From positions 155,372,001 to 155,436,000 of the forward strand of contig OZ024740.1 of assembly GCA_964016885.1 (NCBI GenBank): a stretch of 64,000 nucleotides of DNA. The letters are read 5' to 3'. The notes below the pieces were generated by a model. That model was given only the letters and a program-made list of their open reading frames with translations. It had not been told where the DNA came from and ran no database searches. How positions within the stretch are numbered: the first letter of the stretch is position 1; every line of letters begins with the position of its first letter. A program made the translations under genes and the position numbers. The stretch comes from Eledone cirrhosa (taxonomy: Eukaryota). Of the stretch, positions 11-64,000 are shown in pieces.

Positions 11-3000
11 TTAGGTAAGGCGGGTCTTCTCTGTTACTGAGTACCGCCAAAGGTCTCGGTCCAGTGACATTGTCTTGGAGAGGTGTAAGTGTGTGATGTC
101 GGAGTTTATCAGCTCGTCCCAGGTTTTTCTAGGTCTGCCTATTCCATGACTACCGTCTATCTTTATTGCCCTGCACTTTGTTATACAGCTATCGACTTTC
201 ATGCGCATCACGTGTCCATACCAACGTAGCCTTCTCTCGAGTAAACAACATCTGATCCCTCTTATCTCTAATTTTTTCCTTAGTTCGTTTATGCTTTGCC
301 GTTCACGTATATTACTGTTACACATCCAGCGGAGCATGCAAGCTTCGTTCCTCTCTAGTCTGCGTATATCCTCTGCACACAATGCCCATGTCTCACTGCC
401 ATGCAACATTGCTGTTCGTATGCAGGCATCGTACAACCTGCCTTTCATTTTTAGGGAGAACCCTTTAGCAGCTAATAGTGGTATAAGCTCTCTGAACTTT
501 TTCCAACCAGTTCTGACTCTAGCTACAGTACTTTCAGAGCACCCTCCCCCACTGCTGATTTTATCGCCCAGGTAACGGAAGCTGTCCACTATTTCTATAG
601 AACCCTCTGCGCAATTGAAAGAGCTAGTATTTTGTGGGCACTTGCTGCTACTTATTGCACCAGAACACCGGCCACATGTAAAATCTATGTTCTTAGTTAG
701 CTTACCTGTGATCCCACTACATCTTTTATGCACCCATACTTTGCATTTAGGACATAAAATGGAGTTTCTACCTACGCCTTTCCTACACACCGAGCACGAC
801 CATTTCCCAGAAGGGATCGCCGCCTTGTTTTCTTTCCTACAAACTAGAACTTTGGTCTTAGCCAGGTTAATTTTAAGTCCTTTTGACTCTAGGCCGTGCT
901 TCCATGTTTGGAATTTCTTCTCTAGCTCGGCCATTGATTCCGCTATGAGTGTCAGGTCGTCTGCGTATAGGAGTTCCCATGGGCAGCCTGTCTTGAACTC
1001 CTCTGTTATAGCCTGAAGGGCAATAATAAATAGTAGGGGGCTGAGAACAGAGCCCTGATGGACGCCAACTTTTACGCTAAACTCTTCACTATATTCGTTG
1101 TTAATTCTAACCTTGCTGACTGTTTCTTTATACATGGCTTGTATAGCCCTCACAAGCCATTCGTCAACGCCTAGTTTTCTAAGAGCCCTCCAGATAATGG
1201 AGTGGGGGACTCTGTCGAAGGCTTTCTCCAAGTCGACAAAAGCTAAGTAGAGGGGTTTACCTTTAGCTAGGTACTTCTCCTGTAGTCGTCGTACTATGAA
1301 AAGAGCGTCTGTGGTACTTTTGCCTGACACAAACCCGAACTGCATTTCATCTAGGTCAATTCTCTCTCTGATTAGTTGCGCTATTACTTTTTCCGTGACC
1401 TTCATGACCTGGTCGATTAATTTAATGCCTCTATAGTTACTCCTATCTAGGGCGTCTCCTTTACCCTTATAACAGTTAACGATGATGCTGCTATGCCAGT
1501 CCTTCGGAACAACCCCATTCTGTACGACTTGGTTAACTATGCAGGTGACCATGGTGTGTCCCACCGTGCCAGATGCCTTCAGCATCTCAGCAACTATTTC
1601 CGAAGGCCCAGCCGCCTTACCCGTCTTCATATCCTTGATTGCCTTACTTATTATACTCCCCTCGACTAACACTGCTGGTCCCTCTATTGGGTCGATATGG
1701 GGGAGACTGTCTTTCTCCCATTTATTCTCCTCATTTAGTAGCCTTTCATAGTGACACTTCCAAGCTACCTTCTTATCAGCGTCGGTGATGGCAAGTGTGC
1801 CATCGTCGTTTAGTACACACTTCTCCCCGACAATATCACGGTTTTCCTTGACGCATTGCCTAGCAATCCTGAACACCTCACGTTTTTGGTCATCGCGTTG
1901 TAGAACATGCTTGAACTTTCTTTCCTCAGCTTCCCTTCTTGCTAAGTACACTTGTCTCCTAGCTTCCCTCCTGGCCACTTGATAGTCTTCTCTACTTCCC
2001 CCATCCCGCCATACTTTCCAAGCCTGCTTTTTGGCCTTAATTGACCCCTCCACCTTACTGTTCCACCACCATGTTACTCTCCTCCTGCCTACAGGCCTGC
2101 TCCAGCCACAGACTTCGTCTGTCGCCAACAGCAGGTTTGCTTTCAGAAATTCCCACTCTCCCTCTATATTGTCCGACTGTAAATGTTCTTCCCTACTGTC
2201 GAAAGCATCAAGTAATATGCTTTGAAATTTATTCCTGGCTGTGGGGTCCTTTAGCTTCCATATTTTTCTCGTGAGGATAGTCCTCTTCTGCTGTCGAGTA
2301 CGTCTCGTCCTGACTATGAGGTCGCTAATTATCAGTCTATGTTGGGAGGTGTATTCTTCATGGGGGAGGGATTTAGTGTTTACAACAGACACTCTGTCAC
2401 GTCTTCTGGTAAGGATATAATCTACCTGGCTTGTGTGTTCCCCGGATCTATAGGTGATCAGGTGATTGTCACGTTTTTTGAAGTTAGTGTTACAGATAGT
2501 TAGGTTATTTGCATCACAGAATTCCAGGATTCTGGAGCTTTCCTCATTTCTAGTACCAAACCCATAGCCTCCATGGATTTCGTCGTAGCCGTCACAATGT
2601 TGTCCAACGTGACCATTTAGGTCGCCTGCAATAATTATATAGTCACTGTCGGATATTTGGGAGGTAGTTAGCATGAGTGTCTCATAGAATCTGTCTTTTA
2701 TAGTGCCGGGCAGTCCGGATTGGGGTGCGTACGCAGATATTACTGTCACCGTAGTTTTATTGAGGACAAGTCGTATTTTAATTATTCTGTCGTTCACTCT
2801 ATTTACGTCTATTATCTTATCTGCCCACTTTTCTGCTACCATGATTCCTACTCCACCCAGCCCATCGTCGTTTCCCACCCAGAAAAGCTTATAACATCGT
2901 TTTTTACCCTCAATGAACCTAGCAGACCCTCCCCTCCACCTGGTCTCTTGAATACAACAAACATCGACCTCCTTACGTTCAAGCATTTCTACAACCTCGT

Positions 3001-3280
3001 TAGCGCGACCCTTTAGGGTGCCTACATTTATGGTACCAACTCTGAAGTTTTGGATTGCGTTTGGGGGTTGGGGGCGGTGGGGGGCGGGGGGCGATGGGGT
3101 TATGTTAGCCGTCCGCGATCGAAACAATGAGGAGTGCTCGCATTCTCGTCCAAGAGGTGAATTTGTCTTTATCTTCGGCATTGTCGCTGAGCGTCCAGAT
3201 TTTTCTCTCTCTCTCCTCCACTCTCCAGGATTCCGCAGTCCATCCATCCATCCATCATATATCGAAAGACAACCAGGCAA
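11..3280 (-). CDS. RTE-clade non-LTR retrotransposon polyprotein: APE endonuclease + reverse transcriptase + PHD finger
   Basis: Uninterrupted 1089-aa ORF with APE motifs (GTINVGTL, CCIQETRW, YAPQ, GDLNGHVG, SQVDYIL, SQHRLI), RT motifs (YRGIKL, QFGF, FVDLEKAFDRV, GVHQGSVLSPLLF, YADD, FRYLG) and RTE-type C-terminus ([18 protein letters not shown]). The true start may be the downstream Met (MPKIK). Confidence 0.95.
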   Translation of the reverse strand: MPGCLSIYDGWMDGLRNPGEWRREREKSGRSATMPKIKTNSPLGRECEHSSLFRSRTANITPSPPAPHRPQPPNAIQNFRVGTINVGTLKGRANEVVEMLERKEVDVCCIQETRWRGGSARFIEGKKRCYKLFWVGNDDGLGGVGIMVAEKWADKIIDVNRVNDRIIKIRLVLNKTTVTVISAYAPQSGLPGTIKDRFYETLMLTTSQISDSDYIIIAGDLNGHVGQHCDGYDEIHGGYGFGTRNEESSRILEFCDANNLTICNTNFKKRDNHLITYRSGEHTSQVDYILTRRRDRVSVVNTKSLPHEEYTSQHRLIISDLIVRTRRTRQQKRTILTRKIWKLKDPTARNKFQSILLDAFDSREEHLQSDNIEGEWEFLKANLLLATDEVCGWSRPVGRRRVTWWWNSKVEGSIKAKKQAWKVWRDGGSREDYQVARREARRQVYLARREAEERKFKHVLQRDDQKREVFRIARQCVKENRDIVGEKCVLNDDGTLAITDADKKVAWKCHYERLLNEENKWEKDSLPHIDPIEGPAVLVEGSIISKAIKDMKTGKAAGPSEIVAEMLKASGTVGHTMVTCIVNQVVQNGVVPKDWHSSIIVNCYKGKGDALDRSNYRGIKLIDQVMKVTEKVIAQLIRERIDLDEMQFGFVSGKSTTDALFIVRRLQEKYLAKGKPLYLAFVDLEKAFDRVPHSIIWRALRKLGVDEWLVRAIQAMYKETVSKVRINNEYSEEFSVKVGVHQGSVLSPLLFIIALQAITEEFKTGCPWELLYADDLTLIAESMAELEKKFQTWKHGLESKGLKINLAKTKVLVCRKENKAAIPSGKWSCSVCRKGVGRNSILCPKCKVWVHKRCSGITGKLTKNIDFTCGRCSGAISSSKCPQNTSSFNCAEGSIEIVDSFRYLGDKISSGGGCSESTVARVRTGWKKFRELIPLLAAKGFSLKMKGRLYDACIRTAMLHGSETWALCAEDIRRLERNEACMLRWMCNSNIRERQSINELRKKLEIRGIRCCLLERRLRWYGHVMRMKVDSCITKCRAIKIDGSHGIGRPRKTWDELINSDITHLHLSKTMSLDRDLWRYSVTEKTRLT

Positions 3281-3764
3281 GCGATAGTATAGGCCTCTGG
3301 CTTCTGATTGGTCCGCGTAATAATACTGGTGATGCGTGGGGGCTCTGGCTTATGATTGGTCCACGTAATAGCAGTGGTGGTGGGCGGGAGAGAGGGGTGT
3401 TGGGTAGCTAGATAGGAGGTAATGATTGAATGGGGTCCTTGCACATTTAACAAGCGATTAACAAAAATACAAAATTTGTTCTGTTCAATACGACCAAAAG
3501 CTTTCGTATCTAACAATTAATGATAACAAAAAATGTAGATTGTTTTAGCGATAGATTGGCTATTTGGACTTGATACGAAATATGGATTGTTTTGAAAATA
3601 CGCTAGAATTAGGAATTGAGGAGGTAGAGATGAATACGCTAGAATTAGGAATTGAGGAATTAGGATTGTGGAGGTAGAGATGAAGGAAAATATGTACATT
3701 ACGTTACATGAATATCGTGGGGTAGACAGCAAAGCAATGAAATTTGGCGAAGTGAATTCCTATC

Positions 3765-4139: not shown

Positions 4140-5358
4140 CTAGTTTGTAGGAAAGAAAATAAGGCACCGGTCCCCTCCGGGAAATGGCCATGCTCAGTGT
4201 GTAGGAAAGGCGTAGGTAGAAACTCCATTTTATGTCCCAAATGCAAAGTATGGGTGCATAAAAGATGTAGTGGGATCACAGGTAAGCTAACTAAGAACAC
4301 AGATTTTACATGTGGCCGGTGCTCTGGTGCAATAAGTAGCAGCAAGTGCCCACAAATACTAACTCTTTCAATTGCGCAGAGGGTTCTATAGAAATAGTGG
4401 ACAGCTTCCGTTACCTGGGTGACAAAATCAGCAGTGGGGGAGGGTGTTCTGAAAGTACAGTAGCTAGAGTCAGAACTGGATGGAAAAAGTTCAGAGAGCT
4501 TATACCACTATTAGCCGCTAAAGGGTTCTCCCTAAAAATAAAAGGCAGGTTGTAGGATGCCTGCATACGAACATCAATGCTGCATGGCAGTGAGACCTGG
4601 GCATTGTGTGCATAGGATATACGCAGACTAGAGAGGAACGAAGCTTGCATGCTCCGCTGGATGTGTAATAGTAATATACGTGAATGGCAAAGCATAAACG
4701 AACTAAGGAAAAAATTAGAAATAAGAGGGATCAGATGTTGTTTACTCGAGAGAAGGCTACGTTGGTATGGTCACGTGATGCGCATGAAAGACGACAGCTG
4801 TATAACAAAGTGCAGGGCAATAAAGATAGATGGTAACCACGGAGTAGGCAGACCCAGGAAAACCTGGGACGAGCTGATAAATTCCGACCTCACACACTTA
4901 CACCTCTCCAAGACAATGTCACTGGACCGAGACCGTTGGCGGTACTCAGTAACAGAGAAGACTCGCCTTACCTAAATACAAAGTAAAACCAACTAGTCAG
5001 TAGGCATCTTTTAACAAAATACACTCCCGTCCCACCACCCCATCCACACCGTCCCCTTCAATGCAAAGTTATGTTGGTGCCACAACATCCAGGCCGAAAG
5101 AAACGAGATTGTGTAGGTGTCACGACAAAAAAACACACAGTCCACGCTGTAATGTGGCCATGTAGGCAACACGGTAAAAACCTCCCAGTCCCACACTGTA
5201 AATGTGGTTGGTGTTAGGAAGGGCATCCAGCTGTAGAAAACCTGCCAGACAGTCCTATGCGAGCAAGACAACCACTCATGCCTCAAGTGGGAAAACCCCC
5301 GTCCAAACCCATGCAAGTGTGGAACAGGGACGTTAAACGATGATGATGATGATGATGA
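4140..5358 (+). mobile_element. 5'-truncated copy of the same RTE LINE (PHD region, C-terminus, 3' UTR, (GAT)n tail) with premature stops
   Basis: Near-identical to the reverse complement of 11-850; TAG stops near 4553 and 4613; 3' UTR ends GGACGTTAAAC(GAT)n. Confidence 0.93.
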
Positions 5359-29577: not shown

Positions 29578-30245
29578 CACACACACATGTTCATATATAG
29601 AGAATGTGTATGTATATGTGACTGTGTATGTTTGTGTGCGTCTATGTGTGTGTAAAAGACCCTTGAATTGAAAAAAAATTACCATTACCTGAACAATGTA
29701 ACTGGTAGCAGAACAAAGGTGGATTCATTACATATCATTTTTTTTTGACAGATAAATCTATATTGATGTCCTTGTGTGGTACTATATAGATTTAGTTTCA
29801 GATGTCAGGGGATATAGAAAGATAGACTGCTAAATTGAGTCAGAGAAGAAAAAAGATAAAGAGGTAGATAGACAGTCAGAGGAGAAAAGAGAAAGACAAA
29901 TAGAGTTGTAGAAGAGATTGGATGGATAGATAGATAGGTAGGTAGCTAGATGGATAGATAGGTAGGTAGATAGATAGGTAGCTAGATGGATGGATAGATA
30001 GAGGGGTTGATAGATATGTTTCTTTATTAGCCACAAGGGCACAAAGGAAGGGGACAAATACAAAGGGGGAAGTTTACATACAATAAAAACGTTTAAAATG
30101 CTATCATAAATTTAATTTAAAAATTAATCGATTTTCCTCAATAGGGGGAGACATTTCATATGGGTAACACATACCCCCGAAAAAATGTGCAGCCCTGATC
30201 TCCAGGAGTACGAAGAGTTTGTACCCCTTTCCTCTCTTCCTCTAT

Positions 30246-33200
30246 CTACAGGCTGATACAGAGAGAAGGCCCATTCACTCGGACCATTCTCGCCACTTTC
30301 ACCCACCTTTCATAAAACTTGCTGGGGTACAGCACCTCTCTCTCCATCCTGATTCTTCTTCCAAAGTTGTATTTGAAAAAAAGAATCAGTTGTTGGCCGG
30401 GGAGAAAGTTGTCTGACCTCAGCCCTTTTAACCTCGTCCACCATACAACCTCTTTCGCCATAGCTATCACACAAAGGAAAACCACCTCTCCTTCGTTTTT
30501 GAAGGAGGGTGGCGGTTTGATCATGACAATGGACTCGGTGGTCAACCGGATTAGTCCCACCCGCGACAATAGTCGTTCTACATAGCTCCACAGGTCGGTA
30601 ACGCCCGGGCAGTGTAAGAATGCGTGCGCGACGGTTTCTTCGTCTCGCATGCACCTCGGACAGATCTTTTTCGAAGGGTTCCTGCCCGAGCGCCCATGTC
30701 TGTAGCGCTTGTCTCGAACCGGTAGAGCTCCTCGGTAGCACTGCCAGGCCAGGGACTTTTGGAAGTTGTCTATCGGTCCCGGGAGGAAGGTCCTACCGAA
30801 CAGACTGGCCAGTTCGTCTTCCTCTACGCCCAGAGTTTCACCGAGCACGTCGTCGCACTTGCTGCGGATCAACCCTCTATAGAATGACGAAGTGGAGTCT
30901 CCACTGATCGCCGGGTCCGCCTGCCAGAGGGCTGTGAACGCCTGAGCACATTCGATGTGCCAGTCGCCCATTTTCCTCGGTCTTTGCTTGACCCAGGACC
31001 GCAGCTCGGTCAGCGAGACGAGTCGTGGGAAGGCTCGCTTCACGAACGGGGCCCACACCGGTTGTCCGGTGAGGATTACGTAGAGATGCCGCAGCCTGAG
31101 CGCGTGTTTGCGCATTGTCAGCTACAGCATCACCAGCCCTCCGTTGGAAGCAGATGAATCTTCTCACCAAAGGAGCCGGCCTCTTCCAAAGGAATTGGAA
31201 GGGCGCGCGCTCCATTTTGGTCAGCGTTTTGGCTGCACGACGGTCAAGCGGTAATAGATAGCAAACGCTATAAAAGTGTTCGCCACCTGCGCTCGACCTT
31301 TCAAGGATAGTTTGCACTCGGCCCACTTCTGGGTGAGTGCAAACACCTTGGCCGTCACCTCGTTCCAGCTCTTCTCCACCTGGAGGTCCGGACCAAACCA
31401 GACTCCGAGCAGCTTTACCGGTTCTTCCGTCCAGCATCCGACGACGCCATCAGAAGGCATCGGTTTGCCTCTCCTCGATCCAAGTTGCAAACTGATGGAC
31501 TTGTCCTGGTTCAGCTTCGCTCCTGTGAACCTTTCGTATTCCTGCAGTAAGATTCCGACTTCCTCGATTTGCGAGGTGCTCGACACCATTACTGTCACGT
31601 CGTCGGCGTAGGCTGATGCCGCTTTCCGCAGTTCCGGTTCCGGAGGGATGCCCTGAAATAGCTCCAACTTCCATAGTAGTGACTCGAGAGTCAGTACGTA
31701 CAGCAGGGAGGAGAGAGAACATCCCTGTCGAATGGATCGCGTGATATGGAACGGCTCCGAGAGATAGCCATTCACCTTGACCCTTGAGCAGATGTTGCTG
31801 TTGTGCATTGCAGCAATCCAGCCCCTGAACGCAGGTCCGAAGCCTGCTGCCTCGAGCACCACATCCAGGTAATGATGGTCAACCCTATCGAAAGTCTTAG
31901 ACTGATCCAAGTTGATCAGGACCCCACCAAAGCAGGTTTTACACCATACGTTCTCTAAGATGTATCGCATGAGGTGGAGGTTGTCGTGTATGGACCTGGT
32001 CGGGATTGCGCATGTCTGTGCTTCTCCCACCAGGTTCTCTACGACAAGCGCCAGCTTCTTTGCCAACACCTTGGCCAAAATCTGTAACTCTGTGTTTAGC
32101 AGAGTTATGGGCCGGAAGTTGCCTATGTCATCCCCCTTATTCTCGTCCTTCCTGACTAGTGTGACTACGCCCCCGGTCACAGAACTGGGAATTCTCCCAT
32201 TCTGCTGCCAGTTGCAGTAGACCGCTTCCAGGAGACCGGACAATAAGTCCGGCATTGCTACGTAAAATTCGTAGAGTAGACTGTCGAGACCTGGAGATTT
32301 GCGTTTGCCGCATTGGCTCAGCGCGTCCCCTATCTCAGCAGCTGAAATCGGCTTTTCACAGAACTCCGCCTCGCCGTCCGATAGTCGCGGTAGGCCGTCG
32401 AGGTATGGACCAAAATCCATAGCCCCTCCCAGCGCACTGCCCTGCCCGAACAGTTGACCAAAGTGCCGCTGAAAGGCCACACACATCTGCTTCGGCTCAC
32501 GTATCACGTCTTGGTCTTTCAAAGACCGAATCGTGGACTTGTTGCCACTTTTTGCCTCCGTCACCCGGGCCCAGCTAACAGTTTTGGCTCCCTCATGATC
32601 CTTCAGATCACAAACTACTGACCTGCATAGAACCCATAGACAAGGTTGATAGAACCCATAGACAAGGACCTTGATAGAACCCATAGACAAGGACCCAGCT
32701 ACTAGAAGCTGAACTTGTCGTTACCGACATGCAAAGTCTACAGTAGACGGATTAGCACTTTAGTTAAACAGCACTTGACAGGGGCCATTGTCAACAACAG
32801 ATGGTGGTACTCTCTCAAGAGGGCAGTTAGATTAGACTCATTAGTTTTTAGTAAAGAATTAGCGTTAGATAGAAATAGGACCGAGAAGGAACTGGTAGAT
32901 AAAGTAGAAGAGACAATTAGAAGTGGCAACGCAGCCCTCGTGCTTTGCGTCGAAGAACTGGTCCAAGGCCGTTCTCGTTGCTAGCACGCTGGTTACGTTT
33001 CCACTTATAATTGCCTCTTTATCTACCAGTTCCTTCTTGGTCCTATTTCTATCTAATGCTAATTCTTTACCAAAAACTAATGAGTCTAATCTAACTGCCC
33101 TCTTGAGAGAGTACCACCATCTGTTGTTGACAATGGCCCCTGTCAAGTGCTGTTTAACTAAAGTGCTAATCCGTCTACTGTAGGCTTTGCATGTCGGTAA

Positions 33201-33866
33201 CGACAAGTTCAGCTTCCAGTAGCTGGGTCCTTGTCTATGGGTTCTATCAAAGTTGACCATGCAGGTCACTAGTTTGTGATCTGAATAGGCAACCATGAAC
33301 ATTTGTGGACAGCTTAACATGTCCCTATCCTTATTTCTAACTAGAACCCTATCTAGGTACGATCTAGATGTTCCGCTGCGATTAGTCCACGTCCACAGTG
33401 GCTCAGTCGGAAAATCCAGTCGATATCTATCGGCCAGGTCAAATCGGCCGATTAACTGTTTGAGGCTGTTACACACCCCTTTATCAGGACATGCCCCTAC
33501 ATAGTCCCAACGTGCATCTAGGATTCCATTCCAGTCCCCCACTAAAAGCAAGGAGCGGGACGTTCCCAGAAAAGTCTCTAGACGTTTGAAGAAGTCTGGT
33601 CGCGGTGTCCCGGATGGGGCATATGCGGCCACCAGCCTGAAGGCTCCACCTTCACTACCGTCATTGTTGAGGACCACCAGTCGACCCTCCGGGTCCAGAT
33701 GTACCGTCTGTGTTACGAGGCCCAGCTGTCGCTCGCTGCGGATCCTGAACTCGCAAATGGTTACTACATCCATACTGTGCGACCTGAGGTCATTTAAGAG
33801 TTTGCCCTGTTTCCAGGGCATCCCCTGGCCGCGTACATTCACACATCCAACTCTTATATTGGCCAT
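30246..33866 (-). pseudogene. Copy A ORF2 (APE endonuclease, RT, C-terminal zinc finger) with frameshifts, a deletion and an inverted duplication
   Basis: CVNVRG, AYAPS, VGDWNG, SYLDRVLV, YSDHKLV, YWKLN; KSPGLD, FRPITLLN, IRQGC.LS, AYADDVTV; CPRC...EETVAHAFLHC. Confidence 0.92.
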
Positions 33867-33873
33867 GTTGGTT

Positions 33874-33907
33874 CTGAAAAGTTAAAAGAAGAGAAGAAAA
33901 CACTCAC
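33874..33907 (-). promoter_or_regulatory. Splice donor plus branch/polypyrimidine/acceptor cassette between ORF1 stop and ORF2 start
   Basis: GAG|GTGAGTGTTTTCTTCTCTTCTTTTAACTTTTCAG|AACCAACATG. Confidence 0.55.
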
Positions 33908-35691
33908 CTCTTCGTCTTCCGGGGATCAGGCCGCACGATTTCCATGGGGGTGTTAGAGGGGTTGTCTGGGTGGGTGGTGGTTTCTGGCGGGGTGGGGATG
34001 GAGATGTTTGGTGGGGAGGTGGTGTCTGGGGTGAGGGTGGGGAGGCGGTGTCTGGGGTGAGGGTGGGGAAACTTTTTAAAAGGACGCGGTTAATGGGTTT
34101 AACACAAGGATACCCACGTCCTGAGGAAAGTTTTCCTTTAAAGACTTATAGGTGTCCGTAGGGACCCTAATCATCTTTAAATTAGGTTTGTCTACACAGT
34201 TCGAAAAAGTTTCCCCTTCGGTTTTCACCGAAGGGTCGTTGGAGATGACCTCCATTAAACTTTTATTTTTACTGTTTATGTATGTGTAATGTTCTTGTTG
34301 TGTTGCGGTGGTTTTTGTCTGTTGTTCTTGTGGGAGCTTTCGTTTTGTTGTAGGTGTTTGGAGTGATGTCGTGGTTTTGTTTTCGGGACGGGGGGTTTTT
34401 GTTTGTAATGTTTGTGTTGGTGGTTGTATGTTTGTAGTGATGTTTGTTGTTTTTTTGTTCTTGTGGTGTCTTTTCTTCTTTCTTTTCGAACGGAGAGGCT
34501 CTCCCTCATCATCACTTGGTGATGATGAGGGGGCCTCGCCCATTGTGGTGTCTGTGTTATTTGGAAGGGGTATGTTTTGGGGAGTTGTTGTGTCTGTGGG
34601 TGTTTTTCCAGTGGTTTTAGGTGGAGTGGGGTTGCAGGTTGGTTTGTTGTTTTTGTTTTGGTTATGTTTGCGTGTTGTTTTTGTTGTGGTGGTGGTGGAG
34701 GTTGTGTTGTTGTTTTGGGTGTTGGCAGTAGTGCCTCTTTTTTTTTTTTAAGTTAACTGAGGACAGTGACCACTGCTTAAACAGTGGTAACATGAAGGCC
34801 GCCTACCCTCAACAGAAATGTTTATGTGTGAAATTCCATCCAGAGGCACACGTTGGGGTATTTTAGCTATCCATTCTGGCCTCATTTGGACCAGAACTTC
34901 CATGCTTGTACTATTGAATGTGCCTCTGGAGGACTTTAACACCGAAATGATGGTGTCTTCATCGAAATCGATGAAGCCAGTTAAAATCCACCAGACGTTT
35001 ACATTTGGTGCAATGTTCAACATTTTTATCTTTTGTGTCCTTTTTCCCATATATGTGGGGAAAAAGGTGTAAAGGGGGGACACAATCGGCGATACAGAAT
35101 ATTTTTGTGCTGTCAATTGGTCTTTCAACAACACCGAAATGCTTCCAAAAAGTATTCCTTTTTGGATGAAGGCAATATCCTTCATGAAATTCTTCAGAAC
35201 CAGTTCAATGTCGTTTTGGGATAATTGAACTGGTTTTTTCGACACATTTGAAACCGTCCTAAAAATTACTGTTTTTAGAACAGTTTCTCTGCGTAACTGT
35301 TGAGAAGAAGTGATGCTGAAAAGTTACATACTGTTTTGCATCACTTAACATTTCCCTAGCATTGGAAATGTCAAGGTATGTGAACAGTTCCGTCTTTTGG
35401 ACGGTTTGAGCAAAGGAAATCTTTTCCTTGTTCATGGAGTTGTTGTTGGTGGTGTTGTTGTTATCATTGTTGCTATTGTTTTCTTGTTGTCATTATTGTT
35501 GTTGTTTATATCTTGCATGTTATTGGTGTTAGTGTTGATGTTACAATCAATGTCCGACATCTTGTTTTCAAAACTGACACATTTTCGATGTCTTTCAATG
35601 AGGTGGTGAGAGGAGGTGACTGCGAACTTAACACTCTTACCGCTTCTCCACCACTTCTAGTACTGAACGCAGCGTCTATGACTGAATCCAA
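33904..35691 (-). pseudogene. Copy A ORF1 (Tx1-type nucleic-acid-binding protein with zinc knuckle), frameshifted
   Basis: Homologous to 42264-43589 (FIQK..L.GS.S.L.KD, FFPTYMGK.TQ, VEGRRPSCY.C); reconstructed C-terminus ends MEIVRPDPRKTKR*. Confidence 0.8.
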
Positions 35692-35802
35692 GATTTATTT
35701 ACAATTTTTCCACCGATGAAATTTTTCAAATGAAAATTTCACCCCCAAGAAGGGGTGAAGATGACTTGACCCACCATCTGAAAGTTCAGACGTGGGGTCA
35801 AG

Positions 35803-35870
35803 CTATAAAATAGTATCAAATTTAACAATAAATTTTTGATTTCTTACTTAGAAAATCAGCAAAAACTTAC
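35803..35870 (-). promoter_or_regulatory. Putative 68-nt spliceosomal intron in the 5' UTR of copy A
   Basis: CTG|GTAAGTTTTT...GATACTATTTTATAG|C; positionally equivalent to the 67-nt segments in copies B and C. Confidence 0.65.
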
Positions 35871-35902
35871 CAGCAAACTGGCACACGTAGTGGATAGATA
35901 GA

Positions 35903-36003
35903 TTTCTATTTATTGCCACTAGGGCACAAAAGAAGGGGACAAATACAAGGGGGGAGTTTACACAAAAAGGCGAGTAAAGAAAACAAATAACAAATATAAA
36001 ATG
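35903..36003 (-). mobile_element. Short 3'-end stub of the Tx1-like family
   Basis: TTTCTATTTATTGCCACTAGGGCACAAAAGAAGGGGACAAATACAAGGGGGG matches the 3' terminus of copy A (30018-30080). Confidence 0.8.
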
Positions 36004-36173
36004 ATAGGTAGGTTGGTAGGTAGATGGGTGGGTAGATAGATGGATAGATAGGTAGGTAGGTAGAGATAGATAGATAGATAGGAAGGTAGAGATAGATAGA
36101 TAAGTAGGTAGGTAGATGGATAGATAGATAGGAAGGTAGAGATAGATAGGTAGGTAGGTAGATGGATAGATAT

Positions 36174-39100
36174 GTTTCTTTTATTTGCCATCAGGGCATC
36201 AAAAGTGGGACAAGTACAAAGGGGGGAGTTTACAAAACAAGGCGTCCTCAATAAGGAGGAGGCAATAACAAAATATAAAAATAAAATAAAATATAACAGA
36301 ATAAAATTTATAACAAAATCCTCAATAGAGAGGAGGCGCCTTGGGGGGTCGCACACACCCCCGAAAAAAGTGTGCAACCCTTTTCCTCAGGAGCACAGAG
36401 AAGGGGTTCTCCCTTGGTCTTTCATCTTCCTCACCTATAATCTGATGTAGAGTGAAGGCCCATTCACACGGGCCATTCTCGCCACTTTCACCCATCTTTC
36501 GTAAAAACGGCTGGGGTGCAGCACCTCTCTCTCCATCCTGATCCTTCTTCCGAAATGATATCGGAAGAAACGGACCAGTTGTTGGCCAGAGAGAAAGGTG
36601 TCTGACCTCAGTCCTTTCAGATGCGTCCACCATACAACCTCTTTCGCCATGGCTATTACGCACAGAAACACCGTCTCTCCTTCGTTTTTGAAGAGGGGAA
36701 GCGGCTTGATCGTTACAATAGACTCGGTGGTCAAACGGATCGGTCCCACCCTTGACAGCAGTTGTTCGACATAGCCCCACAGATCAGCAATGCCCGAGCA
36801 GTGTACCAATGCGTGTGCAACGGTTTCCTCGTCGCACACGCATCTGGGACAGATCTTTTTCGAGAGGTCCCTACCTGGGCGCCCGTGTCTGTAGAGCCTT
36901 TCTCGAACGGGCAGAGCCCTTCTGTAGCACTGCCAGGCCAGGGAACTCTGGAAGTTATCCATGGGTCCCGGGCTGAATGTCCTACCGAACAGGTTGGCCA
37001 GTTCGTCTTCCTCCATGCCTAGGGCTTCTCAGAGGGCGTCGTCGCACCTGCTAACCACCAGCCCTCTATAGAATGACGAGGTGGTTTCTCCACTGACAGT
37101 CGGGTCCGCCTGCCAGAGACCCGTGAGCGCCTGGGCACACTCGGTGTGCCAGGCGCCCAGTTTTCTCAGTCTTTGCTTGACCCAGGATTGCAGCTCGGTG
37201 AGTGAGACGAGTCTGGGAAAGGCTCGTCTCACAAACGGGGCCCACACCGGTTGACCGGAGAGGAATACTTGGAGGTGCCGTAGCCTTAATGCGTGTTTAC
37301 GGATCATTAGCCACGGCATCCCCAGCCCTCCTTTCGAAGGGTGTTGACAGCAGATGGATCTCCTCACCATAGGAGCCCGCTTCTTCCAAAGGAATTGGAA
37401 GAGTGCGCGCTCCATTTTGGCGAGCGTTTCCCTTGGGCAAGGCACAACGGTCAGGCGGTAGTAGATGACGGACGCTATATAAGTGTTCGCCACCTCCGCC
37501 CGACCTTTCAGGGACAGTTTGCACTCGGCCCACTTCTGGGTCAGTGCAAACACCCTGTTCGTTACCTCACCCCAGTTCTTCTCCACCTGGAGGTCTGGTC
37601 CGAACCAGACCCCGAGCAACTTCACCAGGCCCTCCGTCCAGCGCCCGACGACGGCATCGGAGGGCATCGATCTGCCCCTCCACGTGCCGAGTTGCAGACC
37701 GATCGACTTGTCCCGGTTCAGCTTAGCCCCTGTAAACCTTTCGTACTCCTCCAGTAAGGTGCCGATCACCCCGATTTCCGAGGCCGTAGGCACCATTACT
37801 GTTACGTCGTCGGTGTAGGCCGACACCGCTTTCCGCAATCCCGGTTCCAACGGGATGCCCTGCAACAACTCCAACTTCCGCAGCAGCTCTAGAGTCATTA
37901 CATACAGAAGGGAGGAAAGAGGGCACCCCTGTCGGATGGAATGCGCGATTTCGAACGGCTCCGAGAGGTAGCCGTTCACCTTGACCCTAGAGCAGATGCA
38001 GCTGCTGTGCATGGCATTGATCCAGCCCCTGAAAACGGGTCCGAAGCCTGCCGCCGCTAGCACCGCATCCAGGTAACCATGGTCGACCCTATCCAATGCC
38101 TTAGATTGATCCAAGTTGATCAGGGCCCCACCAAAGCCGGGTTCGTTCCCAACCCTCTCTATGATGTATCGCATGAGGTGGAGGTTGTCGTGGATGGACC
38201 TGGACGGGATAGCACATGTCTGCGCATCTCCCACCAGGTTGCCCACGACAAGCGCCAACCTCTTTGCTAGCACCTTGGCCAAAATCTGTAACTCTGTATT
38301 TAGCAGAGTTATGGGCCTGAAATTATTTATATCGTCCCCCTTGTTCTCGTCCTTCCTCACTAGCGTGACTACACCCTTGGTCACAGCACAGGGAATTCCC
38401 CCGTTCTGTTGCCAGTTGCAGTAGACCGCCTCGAGGAGATCGGGGAACAAGTCCGACATAGCTAGATATAGTTCGTATGGAAGACCATCGAGACCCGGGG
38501 ATTTGCGTTTGCCGCATTGGCTCAGCACGTCCTCTATCTCAGCAGCTGAAATCGGCTCCTCGCAGGACTTCGCCTCCCTGTCCGAGAGACGCGGCAGGCT
38601 GTCGAGGTATGGACCGAAGTCCACATCCCCAACCGGCTCCCTGCCCCTTCCGAACAATCCGGCAAAGTGTTTTTGAAAAGCCTCGCACATCTACTTAGGT
38701 TCAAGGATCAACCGTCCATCCTGGTCTCGCAAAGACCGGATAGTGGATCTGCTCCCTCTTTTGGCTTCTGTCACGCGGGCCCAGCTAACAGCTTTGGTCC
38801 CCTCATTTCCCAGAGCACGTATTTTGCTTCGGACGATGCAGCCTTCGTGTTTCACATTGAAGAACTGGCCCAGGGCCGTTCTCGACACTAGCACTCTGGC
38901 CACGTCGCCGCTTCTAATTGCCTCTTCTACACTATCTACCAACTCCCTTTCCTTCCTATTTCTATTTGAGGCTAACTCCTTACTAAATTCTATAGAGACT
39001 ACTCTAATCTCTCTTTTGAGAGATCCCCACCACCTGCTGTTGACGATGGCGCCCGTCAACCGCTCCTTAACTAAAGTGCTAATCCGGTCCCTGTAAGCCT

Positions 39101-40466
39101 TACTTGCCGGTAAAGACAAGTTGAGCTTCCAGTAACCAGGTCCCTGTCTATGAGTTCTGTCAAGGTTGACCATGCAGGTCACTAACTTGTGGTCTGAATA
39201 GCCAACCATGCGCATTTTTGGACAACTTAAAAAGTCCTTATCCTTAATTCTAACTAAGAATCTATCTAGGTACGACCTAGATGATCCGCTACGATTTGCC
39301 CAAGTCCAGGTTGAAAGTTTGATCATCCAGTATGACGCGTTCAGGGATCTGGGCGATCCTTTCGGGCCTCATTTGAACTACAAGTTCGAGGCTCGTTCCA
39401 CTGAACGCGTTACCCGATGTCTTTCCCATGGACACCAGTGTGTCATCATCCAAGTTCAGGAAACCTGTCAAAACCCACCATATGTCCATAATCGGCAGGA
39501 TGGTGTGGATTTTTATTTTTTGTGTTCTTCTACCCATGTACGTAGGGTAGAAGGTGTATGCGGTGGATGTGATTGGTTTGATGGACAGTTTCACTGCTGT
39601 GTCCCTGTCCTTCATGAGAATGGATAGACTCCCGTAGAGTCTATCCTTCTGAATGAAGGTGATGTCCTTCATGACGTCTTTTAAAACCAGCTCTATCTCA
39701 CTCTGTGATGGTTGAGCTGGTTTTTTGCTTTTATTTGAGATTGTCCTAAACATGACAGTGTTTAGGAGTCTCTGGCTTTTTAGTTCTGGGGGGGGGGGGG
39801 GGAATGGATCTTGAATGAACCATTTTCCCCGTACACTATATATTTTTTGGCATCTGCCAATAGCTCCTTCGCTTTGGTTATATCTACTGGCAGATAGTCG
39901 AGGGTTTTCCTTGCCGTCTGGGCGAAGGAGGCCCTTTCCCTGCTTGTGTTGCTGTTGTAGTTGGTGGTGTTGTTGCTATCATTGTTGTTGTTATCACAGT
40001 TATTGGTCTTGTTGTTGTTATTGTTATTGGTGTTGTTTTCGTCCATGGCATTGTTGTTGTTGTTGTTGCTGGTGCCTCTGGTTCTTTGGTTTGTTGCCAT
40101 GGCAACGTCAAGTTGTCAGTCAGCAAGTGGAGAAAATCCTTCCTCTGGCTGACCTTTGTTTTTGACCTCTGCTACTGTGACAGTGGCAGGGGGAAGCTGT
40201 AAGTTTATCTTCCCCTTTCCTCCTTCGAATTTTGGTGAAGAAGCTTCAGCCATTTTAAAAAATGTTAACTTTTCAACAAGAAAAAACTTTTTTTGTTTAA
40301 CTATTTCGCCTAAAGGCGTAGAATATTTTGAGAGACTGACCAGATCAAAGTTTGACCTGGCAGTCCCTCTACAAAATGGTACAAAAATTAAAGTTTACAA
40401 ACAAGAATTTCTATAGAAATTTAAACAGAACTTACTCAGCAAGTTATACGCTTGTGTCCATCCCAG
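36174..40466 (-). mobile_element. Tx1-like LINE copy B; internal deletion removes ORF1 C-terminus and endonuclease N-terminus (junction about 39313)
   Basis: ORF1 part 39313-40254 joins directly to TWTWANRSGSSRSYLDRFLV; ORF2 36435-39313 has stops and AYTDD. Confidence 0.92.
40369..40435 (-). promoter_or_regulatory. Putative 67-nt spliceosomal intron in the 5' UTR of copy B
   Basis: TGA|GTAAGTTCTG...CTTTAATTTTTGTACCATTTTGTAG|AG. Confidence 0.68.
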
Positions 40467-42263
40467 AGATATAGATAGGTAGATGGATAGATAGATAGGA
40501 AGGTAGAGACAGATAGATAGGTAGGTAGGTAGAGATAGATAGATAGATAGGAAGGTAGAGATAGATAGATAGGTAGGTAGGTAGATGGATAGATAGGAAG
40601 GTAGAGATAGATAGGTAGATAGGAAGGTAGAGACAGGTAGATAGGAAGGTAGAGACAGATAGATAGGTAGGTAGAGATAGATAGATAGGAAGGTAGAGAT
40701 AGATAGATAGGTAGGAAGGTAGAGATAGATAGATAGGAAGGTAGATAGATGGATAGGTAGGTAGAGAGATAGATAGATAGGTAGGTAGGTAGAGATAGAT
40801 AAATAGGAAGGTAGAGATAGATAGATAAGTAGGTAGGTAGATGGATAGATAGGAAGGTAGAGATAGATAGATAGGTAGGTAGGTAGGTAGAGATAGATAG
40901 ATATGTTTCTTTTATTTGCCATCAGGGCATCAAAAGTGGGACAAGTACAAAGCAGGGAGTTTACAAAACAAGGCGTCCTCAATAAGGAGGAAGCAATAAC
41001 AAAATATAAAAATAAAATAAAATATAACAAAAAATAAAATTTATAACAAAATCCTCAATAGAGAGGAGGCGCCTTGCGGGGTCGCCCCCCCCCCCCCGAA
41101 AAAAGTGTGCAAGCCTTCTCCTCAGGAGCACAGAGAGGGGGTGCTCCCTCGTTCCTTCCTCTTTTCCACCTACAGGCTTATGTAAAGAGAAAACCCATTC
41201 ACACGTGCGATTCTCGCCACTTTCACCCACCTTTCATAAAAACGACTGGGGTGGAGCACCTCTCTCTCCATCCTGATCCTTCTTCCGAAATGATATCGGA
41301 AGAAACGGACCAGTTGTTGGCCAGAGAGAAAGGTGTCTGACCTCAGTCCTTTCAGACGCGTCCACCATACAACCTCTTTCGCCATGGCTATTACGCACAG
41401 AAACACCGCCTCTCCTTCGTTTTTGAAGAGGGGAGGCGGCTTGATTGTTACAATAGACTCGGTGGTCAAACGGATCGGTCCCACCCTTGACAGCAGTTGT
41501 TCGACATGGCCCCACAGATCGGCTACGCCCGATCAGTGTACCAATGCGTGTGCAACGGTTTCCTCGTCGCACACGCATCTGGGACAGATCTTTTTGGCGG
41601 GGTCCCTACCCGGGCGCCGGTGTCTGTAGAGCTTTTCTCGAACGGGTAGAGCCCCTCAGTAGCATTGCCAGGCCAGGGACTTCTTGAAGTTGTCCATGGG
41701 TCCCGGGCTGAATGTCCTACCGAACAGGTTGGCCAGTTCGTCCTCCTCCATGTCTAGGGCTTCTCCGAGGGCGGCGTCGCACCTGCTGCGTACCAGCCCT
41801 CTATAGAATGTTGCGGTGGATTCGCCACTGACAACCGGATCTGCCTGCCAGAGGGCGGTGAGCGCCTGGGCACACTCAGTGTGCCAGGCGCCCAGGGGGG
41901 GGGGGATTTTTTAGGAGGGCGCGGTTGATTGGTTTGGCGCGGGGGGGGGGGGGGGGGGCACATCCTCCGTGAAATTTATTTTCAGTGTTTTATAAAAGTT
42001 CATTGGGACTTTAATCATTTTTAAATGAGGTAGTCCCACAGCAGTTATAAAGTTAGGCCCTTCAGTTTGGACCGAAGGGTTTGATGAAATTGTTTTCAGT
42101 AGTTCTTTGTTGTCTGTGTTCATGTATGTATATTGTAAAGTCTTTTTTTGTGTAGCAGTTAGTGTTGTGTGATGGGGAGGGGTGGTTTGTATATAGTTTG
42201 TGTTCTCTTGGGGAGGGTTAAAGTTAACAAGTGTGTCTGTGGTGCGCCTCCTCTTCTTTCTTT

Positions 42264-43384
42264 TTACTGTTTGGAAGGGATCTTTTTCGTCTTGCGACGA
42301 AAGGGGTTCGTCTTCTTTGTTGGGTGGGAGGGGTATGTTTTCTGGTAGTGTTTGCGGTGTGTGTGTTTTTGTATTTGTTTTGGGTGGGGAGGGGTTGGGT
42401 GGGACAGTATTCTGTGTTGTTTTTCACGTGTTTGTTGTTGTTGTGGTGGTGGTGGTGTTGTTGGTTTTTGTTGTTGTTGTGGTTGTTTTTGTTGTTGTTG
42501 TTGTTGGGGTGGTGTTGGTGTTGGTAGCAGTGTTGTTTTCTGTGTGAGCTGGGGACAGGCAGCCCTCAGGTTACCTCTATTGCCACAGAGGTAACAGGAG
42601 GGACGCCTACCCTCCACAATAATATTGAGGTGGGTACGGTCATCCAGCATGACGCGCTCAGGGATTTGGGCGATACGTTCTGACCTTATTTGTGTCAGAA
42701 CTTCGATACTCGTTCCACTGAACGCATCGCCAGATGCCTTCCCTATTGAAATGAGGTTGTCCTCGTCTAAATTGAGGAAACCGGTTAGTAACCACCAGTA
42801 GTTTATGTTTGGGGTGATGGTGGTTATCCATATTCTCTGGGTTTTTTTACCCATGTAGGTGGGGAAGAAGATGTAGTGTGTGGAACGAATTGGCGACACA
42901 GAGTATTTTTTCGCCGCCAATTCGTCTTTCATCAATATGGATAAACTCCCATAGAGTTTATCCTTTTGTATGAAAGTGATGTCTTTCATCGCTTCTTTCA
43001 GTACTAACTGAATTTCAGCTTGAGATGGTTGTGCTGGTTTTTTTGTTTTATTTAAAATTGTACGGAATACGACAGTTCGTAATTCCGTCTGTTTTTTTAG
43101 TTCTGGAGGTGAATTTATAGAAAACGAACCGTTTTCGCCAAAAGATAAATATTTTTTGGCTTTTTCCAGCATTTCTTTGGCTTTTGAAATATCTTCAAGC
43201 ACATAAGTGACTGATAATTTAGCCGTTTGTGCAAAAGATATTTTGTTTTCGTTGTTGGTGTTTGTATTGTTTTGTTTCTCATCGTTTGAGTTGTTTTCAT
43301 CTTTGTTGTTGTTGTCTTTCTCGTTTGGTGTGTGGATACTTGTGACGTTTGTGTTGTTGTTGTTTTTGTTATCTTTATTGTTGC

Positions 43385-43415
<31 letters not shown>

Positions 43416-43589
43416 TTCAGTTTCTTGTATAGTTGTGGCTACATCAAGTTGTCGGTCAACAGGTGAAGAAAATTCTTCCTCTGGCTGACCTCTGCCTTTG
43501 GCATCTGCTGCTGTGACAGTGGCAGGGGGAAGCTGTGAGTATGACTTCCCTTTTCTTTCTTTGAATGTTGGTGAAGATGCTTCAGCCAT
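42264..43589 (-). CDS. Copy C ORF1 protein (N-rich low-complexity N-terminus, conserved core, degenerate zinc knuckle CYLCGNRGNLRAAC); C-terminal part frameshifted, homology continues to about 41900
   Basis: Long ORF starting MAEASSP; homologous to ORF1 of copies A and B. Confidence 0.82.
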
Positions 43590-43721
43590 TTTTATCAAAA
43601 TATGATTTTTCGAAATTTTTCGAAATTTTTTGAAAGATAAAATTTTTACAACACTATTTCGCCTAAAGGCGTAGAATATTTTGAGAGACTGACCAGATCA
43701 AAATTTGACCTGGCAGTCTCT

Positions 43722-43788
43722 CTACAAAATGGTACAAAAATTAAAGTTTACAGTTCACAATTTCCAGATAAATTTAAACGAAACTTAC
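43722..43788 (-). promoter_or_regulatory. Putative 67-nt spliceosomal intron in the 5' UTR of copy C
   Basis: TCG|GTAAGTTTCG...CTTTAATTTTTGTACCATTTTGTAG|AG. Confidence 0.68.
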
Positions 43789-45124
43789 CGAGCGAGCTCA
43801 GCACATGTGTCTATCCCAAGACTGATAGATTAGAGACAGATAGATAGGTAGGTAGGTAGATGGATAGATAGATAGGAAGTTAGAGATAGAGAGATAGGAA
43901 GGTAGAGATAGATAGATAGATAGGTAGGTAGGTAGATGGATAGATAGATAGGAAGGTAGAGACAGATAGATAGATAGGTAGGTAGTTGGATAGATAGATA
44001 AATGGATGGATAGATAGATAGATAGGTAGGTAGGTAGATGGATAGATAGATAGGAAGGTAGAGACAGATAGATAGATAGGTAGGTAGTTGGATAGATAGA
44101 TAAATGGATGGATAGATAGATAGATAGGTAAATAGATGGATAGATAGAGGGAGACAGAAAGGAAGACAGAGTTTTCTCTTTATTCAGAGAACAGAAAAGA
44201 TTTAAAGTAATTCCAACTGTGCCAGATTAGGTAAATATAATTTGACAATATGAGTGAAAAACTGAAAAATGATTCAATGTGGAGGAAAGGTGATAGATAA
44301 GGATTAAAATATTTCAAAAAATGAATATAGGTTTTGAAAGGTCCACATATGATAAGCTTTTGTAAATAGAATAAAATAAAATGAGATATGTAGATTTTAT
44401 TTTCATTTAAAGATTTCAATGGTATTATAAGCATGACTTAGTGGTGATAGTGGTTATGGAAGCAGAGTGATAAAGAGAGTGAAAAGGCAAGACAGATAGA
44501 GAATGAGCATATGCAAATGATAGATAGGACTCTCTTTCTTTTGCAAACACACACACAAATACATGATCAATAAAAACGGATAAAAATCACAAACAATTAA
44601 ACTAGAATACTCAGTATATCATGTAGAGAGAGTACATTCATTTATTTAAAATCTAACTGTTACAGGTGTAATTCTGTTTCTGCCAGTTAAGTATCCATCA
44701 GCTGCTCTCTGAAGAATTCTCAACTGAAAGAAACAGAACTACTCCAATAAGAGTCACCTCTTAAATACATTAACATATGCACACACGTGGGATAAATGAA
44801 CAAACGCAGCCAAGCTCCTCATCAGCCACTACTCAGGCAATAGATTTTCTTGCATAAAAGTGGGATTGTATAATATTGAGCCCAAGTTGTATGATGGCTT
44901 GAGTAAACCACTGGAAAGATGTGTATGAGACAACACAACATCACTGTGACAGAAGAACGCAACAAAGTATTTTTCAACAAATAAGAATAGAAAGTCTTAC
45001 GACGGGAAACAGAACAGGATAGAGTATAGGCAATCAGACAAGTTGTGTAAAATCTAACACAGGAAGGAAGGAAATATATGTACATATATATGTGTGTGTG
45101 TGTGCATATATAAATATATATATA

Positions 45125-63180: not shown

Positions 63181-64000
63181 TTCATCATCATCAACGTTTA
63201 ACGTCCGTGTTCCACGCTTGCATGGGTTTGGACGGGGGTTTTCCCACTTGAGGCAAGAGTGATTTGCTCGCATAGGACTGTCTGGCGAGTTTTCTACAGC
63301 TGGATGCCCTTCCTAACACCAACCACATTTACAGTGTGGGGCGGGGAGGTTTTTACCGTGTTGCCTACACGGCCACATTACAGCGTGGACTGTCTGGCGG
63401 GTTTTCTACAGCTGGATGCCCTTCCTAACACCAACCACATTTACAGTGTGGAGCTGGGAGGTTTTTACCGTGTTGCCTACACGGCCACATTACAGCGTGG
63501 ACTGTGTGTTTTTTGTCGTGACACCTACACGATCTCATTTGTTTCGGCCTGGATGTTGTGGCACCAACATAACTTTACATTGAAAGGAGCGGTGTGGATG
63601 GGGTGGGGGTGGTGGGACGGGCTGTGTTTTGTTAGAGATGCCTACTGACTGTAGTAGGTTTTACTTTGTATTTAGGTAAGGCGTGTTTTCTCTATTACTG
63701 AGTACCGCCAAAGGTCTCGGTCCAGTGACATTGTCTTGGAAAGGTGTAAGCGCGTGAGGTCGGAATTTATCATGTCGTCCCAGGTTTTTCTGGGTCTGCC
63801 TACTCCGTGGCTACCGTCTATCTTTATAGCCCTGCACTTTGTTATACAGCTGTCGTCTTTCATGCGCATCACGTGACCATACCAACGTAGCCTTCTCTAG
63901 AGTAAACAACATCTGATCCCTCTTATTTCTAATTTTTTCCTTAGTTCGTTTATGCTTAGCCGTTCACGTATATTACTATTATACATCCAGCGGAGCATGC
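63181..64000 (-). mobile_element. RTE LINE 3' end (continues beyond the window) with ~112-bp tandem duplication in the 3' UTR
   Basis: Encodes ...[15 protein letters not shown]...IEKTRLT*; segment about 63277-63388 repeats at about 63388-63500. Confidence 0.93.

Follow-up and report, generated by a model that had tools for sequence, protein, structure and literature searches.

L1/Tx1-type LINEs of Eledone cirrhosa keep a 5' splice donor at their ORF1 stop that is functional in at least one copy

The stretch of 64,000 nucleotides of Eledone cirrhosa DNA analysed here (the window) carries on its minus strand three LINE copies arranged head to tail, each inserted in the (CTAT)n tail of the preceding copy. 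Copy A (about 40900..43820) has lost the ORF1/ORF2 junction and most of ORF2 by deletion, and copy B (36170..40460) has lost the junction by an internal deletion. Copy C (30015..35890), the third unit of the array, is an L1/Tx1-type LINE that is full length, broken, and embedded in a (CTAT)n microsatellite. Its ORF1 (33904..35680) contains frameshifts and a 26-bp duplication, and the reading frame of the family stops at a TGA at 33906-33904. Its ORF2 (30246..33866), which specifies an AP endonuclease, a reverse transcriptase (RT) and a zf-RVT domain, is interrupted by the loss of ~80 nt near 33725 and by an inverted duplication at 32668-32930. An AATAAA (30023..30028) stands immediately ahead of the microsatellite tail. 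Between copies B and C (35890-36244) lies a second short 3'-end piece with an AATAAA of its own, which is probably a very short truncated insertion into a microsatellite tail. The window also contains an RTE-like LINE with an open frame of 1112 aa (endonuclease, RT and PHD finger) at 11-3349 on the minus strand, and more RTE-like pieces at 4140-5255 and 63387-64000.

The LINE of the array belongs to a larger set of related subfamilies, to which we gave labels of our own (A, B, C, Y, U, T, V1-V3, W1, W2 and Z). Subfamily Y, a young sister of C with 96% DNA identity in ORF2, retains an intact ORF2 of 1145 aa and an ORF1 of 638 aa in many copies; the separate upstream ORF1 was intact in 7 of 20 Y loci. 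The Pfam domains of ORF2 are PF03372 (the N-terminal AP endonuclease), PF00078 (RT) and PF13966 (zf-RVT), and the best match of the intact Y ORF2 among solved structures is human L1 ORF2p (E 6.5e-52), far above R2. A domain search with the Y ORF1 returned a zinc-knuckle match only, and a weak one (E 0.24). All 12 aligned full-length Y copies have their 5' ends in (CTAT)n, and the target of V1, V2, W1 and W2 is (ATT)n. Members of the Tx1 clade are known to use such targets; for example, Kibi inserts in (TC)n and Koshi in (TTC)n microsatellites (PMC4494074). The element resembles Tx1, Keno, Kibi and Koshi in having two ORFs, an AP endonuclease with an RT, and insertion into microsatellites, and it differs from Kibi and Koshi in its targets, (CTAT)n and (ATT)n (PMC4494074). 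Judged by domains and target rather than by a reference RT tree, it fits a microsatellite-targeting LINE of the L1/Tx1 type. L1-Tx1 families are reported to have been active recently in Octopus vulgaris (PMC13282606). Very young subfamilies with intact ORFs were found here at loci L112-L131 and L299-L318, and sister subfamilies alternate between (CTAT)n and (ATT)n as target. Tandem arrays have units of 5.84-5.9 kb, and at least eight ORF2 starts lie within G000:C1:423.36-423.42 Mb.

Where ORF1 of copy C ends, the sequence GAG/GTGAGT (33902..33910, minus strand) places a 5' splice donor over the stop codon. It is followed by a pyrimidine-rich spacer (33877..33901), of which the composition is kept among related copies and the sequence and length are not, and by an acceptor-like CAG (33874..33876) 7 nt ahead of the ORF2 ATG, which is found at that offset only in subfamilies C and Y and for which no use was detected. 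A preliminary description had drawn attention to this arrangement, and its positions are correct to the base, with GTGAGT starting at 33907, the AG ending at 33874, the ATG at 33866, and 34 nt from donor to acceptor. The GTAAGT that it reported near the 5' end is likewise present (35865..35870), starting at 35870, and the tandem duplication of 26 bp in ORF1 was confirmed at about 34068-34017. Its reconstruction of the ORF1 frame stood in part: termination as KTKR* at the TGA inside GTGAGT is backed by the family, but the INRVLLK frame of the broken copy C itself reaches a later TAA. The KTKR* frame matches the C-terminus of the intact ORF1 of subfamily Y. It is the commonest phase in related copies, yet it appears in just 11 of the 27 that have a usable upstream anchor, because old copies carry indels. 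Removal of the 34 nt would, as was claimed, join ORF1 and ORF2 in frame in subfamily C (phase 2 plus 7 nt). The junction is not a peculiarity of one degraded copy, as had been thought, since 181 copies share it with an exact match of 23 nt downstream. It is present in 29 of 29 other aligned C copies, in which the spacer varies in length by pyrimidine units.

The donor has been kept far beyond subfamily C. Of 174 copies, 159 have G/GTRRGT 20-60 nt upstream of the ORF2 ATG, and so do 11 of 12 subfamilies, the twelfth being a single copy with CTAAGT; shuffled sequences yield a GGTRRGT in the 40 nt upstream of the ATG in 0.05-0.2% of cases. In the 11 subfamily majorities, donor positions -1, +1, +2, +5 and +6 are invariant (by construction of the match), the columns flanking the donor agree at just 36-82%, and ORF2 DNA identity between subfamilies is 66-96%. 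As the subfamilies share an ancestor, these occurrences are not independent origins, and the argument, made within one genome, is that the motif stayed while its flanks drifted. It stayed in subfamilies that differ in target and in the end of ORF1 and that have unrelated 5' UTRs. By a simple count of U1 pairing, the donor ranks first or second among the 278-318 GT sites of each element in 9 of 9 elements. Moreover, it lies in phase 2 in C, A, U, W1 and W2, in phase 1 in Y, V1, V3 and Z, and in phase 0 in V2 and the single T copy. The phase has switched inside each of three clades, and the stop in the motif may be TAA, TGA, TAG, or none. Thus, protein coding is not what holds the motif in place.

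One way to account for its constancy is that the motif is a signal for translation, serving termination at ORF1 and reinitiation at ORF2, which mimics a donor and is spliced by accident. Its fixed place 28-44 nt ahead of the ORF2 ATG, the accompanying pyrimidine tract, and the AAC or CAAC that mostly precedes the ATG would all suit such a role, and reinitiation or coupling has been described for L1 and SART1 (PMC5972666). However, the letters that never vary coincide exactly with the 5' splice consensus, and they are kept in all three frames, be the TRR a stop or not. The site is also spliced in vivo, as set out below. We regard this explanation as improbable. For the termination-reinitiation of mammalian L1 and SART1, the accessible part of that report describes no donor at the stop (PMC5972666).

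If the motif is a donor, its partner has to be considered. The acceptor previously proposed was the CAG 7 nt before the ORF2 ATG, paired either with the ORF1-stop donor, so that a micro-intron of 34 nt would be removed and ORF1 fused to ORF2, or with the 5'-UTR donor at 35870, so that an mRNA for ORF2 alone would arise. Neither pairing gained support. When the inter-ORF region was aligned for conserved signals, the donor was conserved, but the YAG was not: four of the 11 subfamilies (C, Y, V1 and V2) have a consensus YAG in the spacer, and the other seven lack it, although one of three U copies has a YAG there. In subfamily A, which includes copy A of the window, the donor is present, and an AG before the ATG was found in 0 of 22 donor-bearing copies. 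As for the fusion, the spacer YAG is in frame in C and, through a different AG, in V2, but not in Y and V1, and two of four is within chance. In Y, a one-base shift lets ORF1 end as KGE* at the next TGA and puts the equivalent splice out of frame.

The second pairing does have points in its favor, in that the CAG at -7 scores high in C and a 5' GGTAAGT is present at the expected place in A, B and C. The same GGTAAGT is missing there in Y and U, however; A has the 5' donor without the AG, and Y has the AG without that donor. In addition, copy L031 starts right at the acceptor, but it lacks a 5' exon and is a plain truncation into the microsatellite. The start of this 5'-truncated copy falls on the first base past an AG of the 33874 type or one base away from it, which is compatible with chance truncation.

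A LINE RNA that makes ORF2p copies itself. Either of the RNAs first proposed would make ORF2p (the fused RNA as a full template, the ORF2-only mRNA in cis), and either should therefore have left retrocopies. Such copies exist in humans, where spliced L1 RNAs retrotranspose and leave precisely deleted copies known as SpIREs (PMC5860796). A search with the acceptor-side pattern of the C type covered 182 genomic copies and revealed none without the 34 nt and none joining the 5' donor to the acceptor; 181 were unspliced, and one was a 5' truncation into the microsatellite. The corresponding Y-type search gave six exceptions against roughly 410 copies, all with point changes or deletions elsewhere and none spliced. 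From the donor side, 23 exceptions were obtained against ~956 C- and Y-type copies, with no clean GT-AG product among them; they consisted of point mutants, chance matches, an unrelated stretch in the ORF1 of other subfamilies, and a single deletion of 130 nt. The donor-side pattern detects only acceptors with a purine at one position and does not cover the conserved TAG at ORF2 +2807. The 130-nt deletion (L211) runs from the donor into ORF2 (+93, behind a CAG); it is in frame and misses a GT-AG join by one base, and microhomology is as likely a cause.

Assembled contigs, a shallow test, pointed the same way. In run X4, which comprises 88 million letters of contigs, none of the eight joints listed used the 33874 acceptor or joined the 5' donor to the AG before ORF2, and two contigs traversed the spacer unspliced. 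A segment of 34 nt probably falls below what this host can splice, and the small intron of the first proposal is probably not in use. Taken with the retrocopy searches, these data make the ORF2-only mRNA very unlikely and the micro-intron slightly more unlikely still. Other possible acceptors within ORF2 were rejected. The AG of the ORF2 Arg5 codon was dismissed because an AGA codon will always suit one of the phases, whereas the phase of the donor varies, and the conserved YAGs at +415, +1841 and +2807 track conserved residues.

We show herein that the donor has been used in at least one copy. A contig of 542 nt from X4 follows the 3' end of ORF1 and exits the element exactly at the donor. 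The 27 letters past the donor have a single match in the 3.0 Gb genome. It lies on the same strand as the C copy L015, 22,483 nt downstream of it, and starts directly after a pyrimidine tract and CAG; the intron is of the GT-AG type and 22,483 nt long. The junction (G000:C3:34982284>35004768) connects the copy at G000:C3:34980313-34982284 (L015/L069) with an exon at locus L319, and this downstream exon encodes a Sulfotransfer_2 domain (E 6e-33). Among 89 loci, L015 is the best match to the variants of the contig, and among the loci examined it is the only one with the variant at the exon end. The GT-AG splice of this contig implies that X4, a run of unrecorded kind, is RNA. The splice is carried by one contig, whose 27-28 far-side letters are fewer than the 31 that the search tool demands for bridging, and runs X1, X5 and X6 added nothing further on splicing. 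In this transcript, the AG 34 nt away was bypassed in favor of an acceptor 22 kb downstream, which also speaks against the micro-intron.

In this radiation of L1/Tx1-type LINEs, the GTGAGT at the ORF1 stop is a 5' splice donor that has been conserved and is functional in at least one copy, and the preliminary description was right to see a real donor in the stop codon. It agrees with U2-type 5' splice sites in consensus and in conservation, and its GT-AG use was observed once, in a related copy. A donor that is real, conserved and working thus stands at the end of ORF1, and its partner acceptor is a candidate only. The single splice demonstrates that the donor is able to function, but not which use the element makes of it.

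ORF1p is required by LINEs in far greater amounts than ORF2p, and translational control on a single bicistronic RNA is the accepted explanation of how this is achieved. That selection has maintained a donor at the ORF1 stop throughout a radiation points instead to control by RNA processing. The reading that we favor, with a probability of about 0.45, is that the job of the donor is to splice out ORF2 as a whole, giving an ORF1-only mRNA; here the acceptor, the mRNA and the purpose are what we infer. Part of the RNA would be spliced from the ORF1-stop donor to an acceptor that coincides with the ORF2 stop or closely follows it. The entire ORF2, about 3.45 kb, would thereby be removed, and the unspliced RNA would stay both the message for ORF2 and the template for insertion. 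The purpose would be an excess of ORF1p. With its junction at the stop codon, the ORF1-only message would escape nonsense-mediated decay, and ORF2 would likely be translated off the unspliced RNA by reinitiation over the pyrimidine spacer, the mode known from other bicistronic LINEs.

In copy C the candidate acceptor is the ORF2 stop itself, a TAG in a pyrimidine-TAG context (30246..30262, minus strand). In C, Y, A, U, T, V1, V2 and part of Z, ORF2 terminates with CTRTAG, after which a G and a run rich in purines mostly follow. In W1 and W2 it ends in TAA, and the top-scoring acceptor lies in the 3' UTR. By a crude score of our own, the AG at the ORF2 end ranks 2-6 among about 260 in U, T, V1 and V2, and 12-43 in Y, C, A, W1, W2 and Z. 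In six of ten subfamilies, namely Y, V1, V2, U, T and, in one copy, Z, the predicted spliced frame would meet a stop within three codons; no early stop follows in C, A, W1 and W2, with 33-50 extra codons in C and about 40 in A. For the Y element, none of the 15 joints listed out of 309 starts at the donor, and a joint linking the donor with the end of ORF2 was thus not among them. Nor did any retrocopy join the donor to the ORF2 end among the ~956 C- and Y-type copies or the further loci examined. Preferential copying of the RNA that made ORF2p would likewise explain why ORF1-only retrocopies are absent. The 3' UTR of W1 and W2 (L307-L316) contains a strong textbook acceptor about 150 nt past the ORF2 stop.

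A comparable arrangement is known from Ty1/Copia elements. Drosophila copia and Arabidopsis EVD (shGAG) produce a Gag-only RNA, for which a conserved U1 site enables splicing and blocks early termination; the spliced RNA yields abundant structural protein, the unspliced RNA is the genome, and the intron of copia is about 3 kb (PMC5580714). As in those elements, a conserved U1-binding donor is found here at the end of the structural gene (PMC5580714), in our case ORF1. Unlike the present element, Ty1/Copia elements have LTRs and a single Gag-Pol frame, in which splicing creates the stop (PMC5580714), whereas this is a LINE whose ORF1 already ends in a stop and whose spliced isoform is predicted. 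It is conceivable, with a shade less confidence than we place in the excision of ORF2, that a non-LTR element uses its whole ORF2 as an intron under regulation, has arrived by convergence at the Copia route to an excess of structural protein, and in doing so offers ORF1 exons to its host.

The main rival to ORF2 excision takes the site to be a binding site for U1 snRNP without productive internal splicing. U1 might guard the bicistronic RNA from early cleavage and polyadenylation, or aid transcription, stability or export, and splicing into host exons would be a side effect. That the donor is much better conserved than any acceptor, that the spacer is free of AG in most subfamilies, and that spliced retrocopies are lacking are all as this explanation would predict. 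Several subfamilies also have donor-like motifs some 25-55 nt inside the 5' end, and in EVD, U1 is reported to suppress early termination (PMC5580714). However, AATAAA and ATTAAA lie mostly upstream, in ORF1, and none is found in ORF2 of Y, C, A and W1, so that little would be left downstream for U1 to protect. The fixation of the site at the very end of ORF1 would also go unexplained. We consider a U1 site of this kind somewhat unlikely, and prefer the excision of ORF2. Donor-like motifs at varying positions ~25-80 nt from the 5' end were noted in A, C, Y, U, V1 and W1, and in the CTAT-targeting subfamilies they adjoin a shared promoter-like motif.

Functional splice sites within a LINE are not new in themselves, and the present element shares them with human L1 (PMC5860796). 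The SpIREs, by contrast, stem from a 5'-UTR donor and are dead-end products (PMC5860796), and the donor here lies at the ORF1 end, is conserved, and has left no spliced copy that we could find. In the part of the literature that was covered, neither a conserved donor at the ORF1 stop of a LINE nor a spliced LINE RNA for ORF1 alone turned up. What is new here is evidence of splicing from the ORF1-stop donor of a LINE.

The donor may matter to the host as well. Close to a thousand genomic copies carry a working donor able to divert host transcripts, as in the sulfotransferase gene. In that case, a spliced host transcript crosses an intronic, 5'-truncated C copy, and the LINE part is out of frame with the host exon. 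The C-type copy in the sulfotransferase gene cluster is likely an instance of exonization that alters a host transcript. In vertebrates, exonization of L1 ORF1 (Lyosin, L1-RFX5 and others) has spliced an ORF1-derived exon to downstream host exons (PMC12129022), and the sulfotransferase case is alike in joining an ORF1-derived exon to a downstream host exon. It differs from Lyosin and L1-RFX5, which are old, conserved and in frame (PMC12129022), in being out of frame and in using the conserved donor of the element itself. A paralogous sulfotransferase exon sits upstream of the L015 copy.
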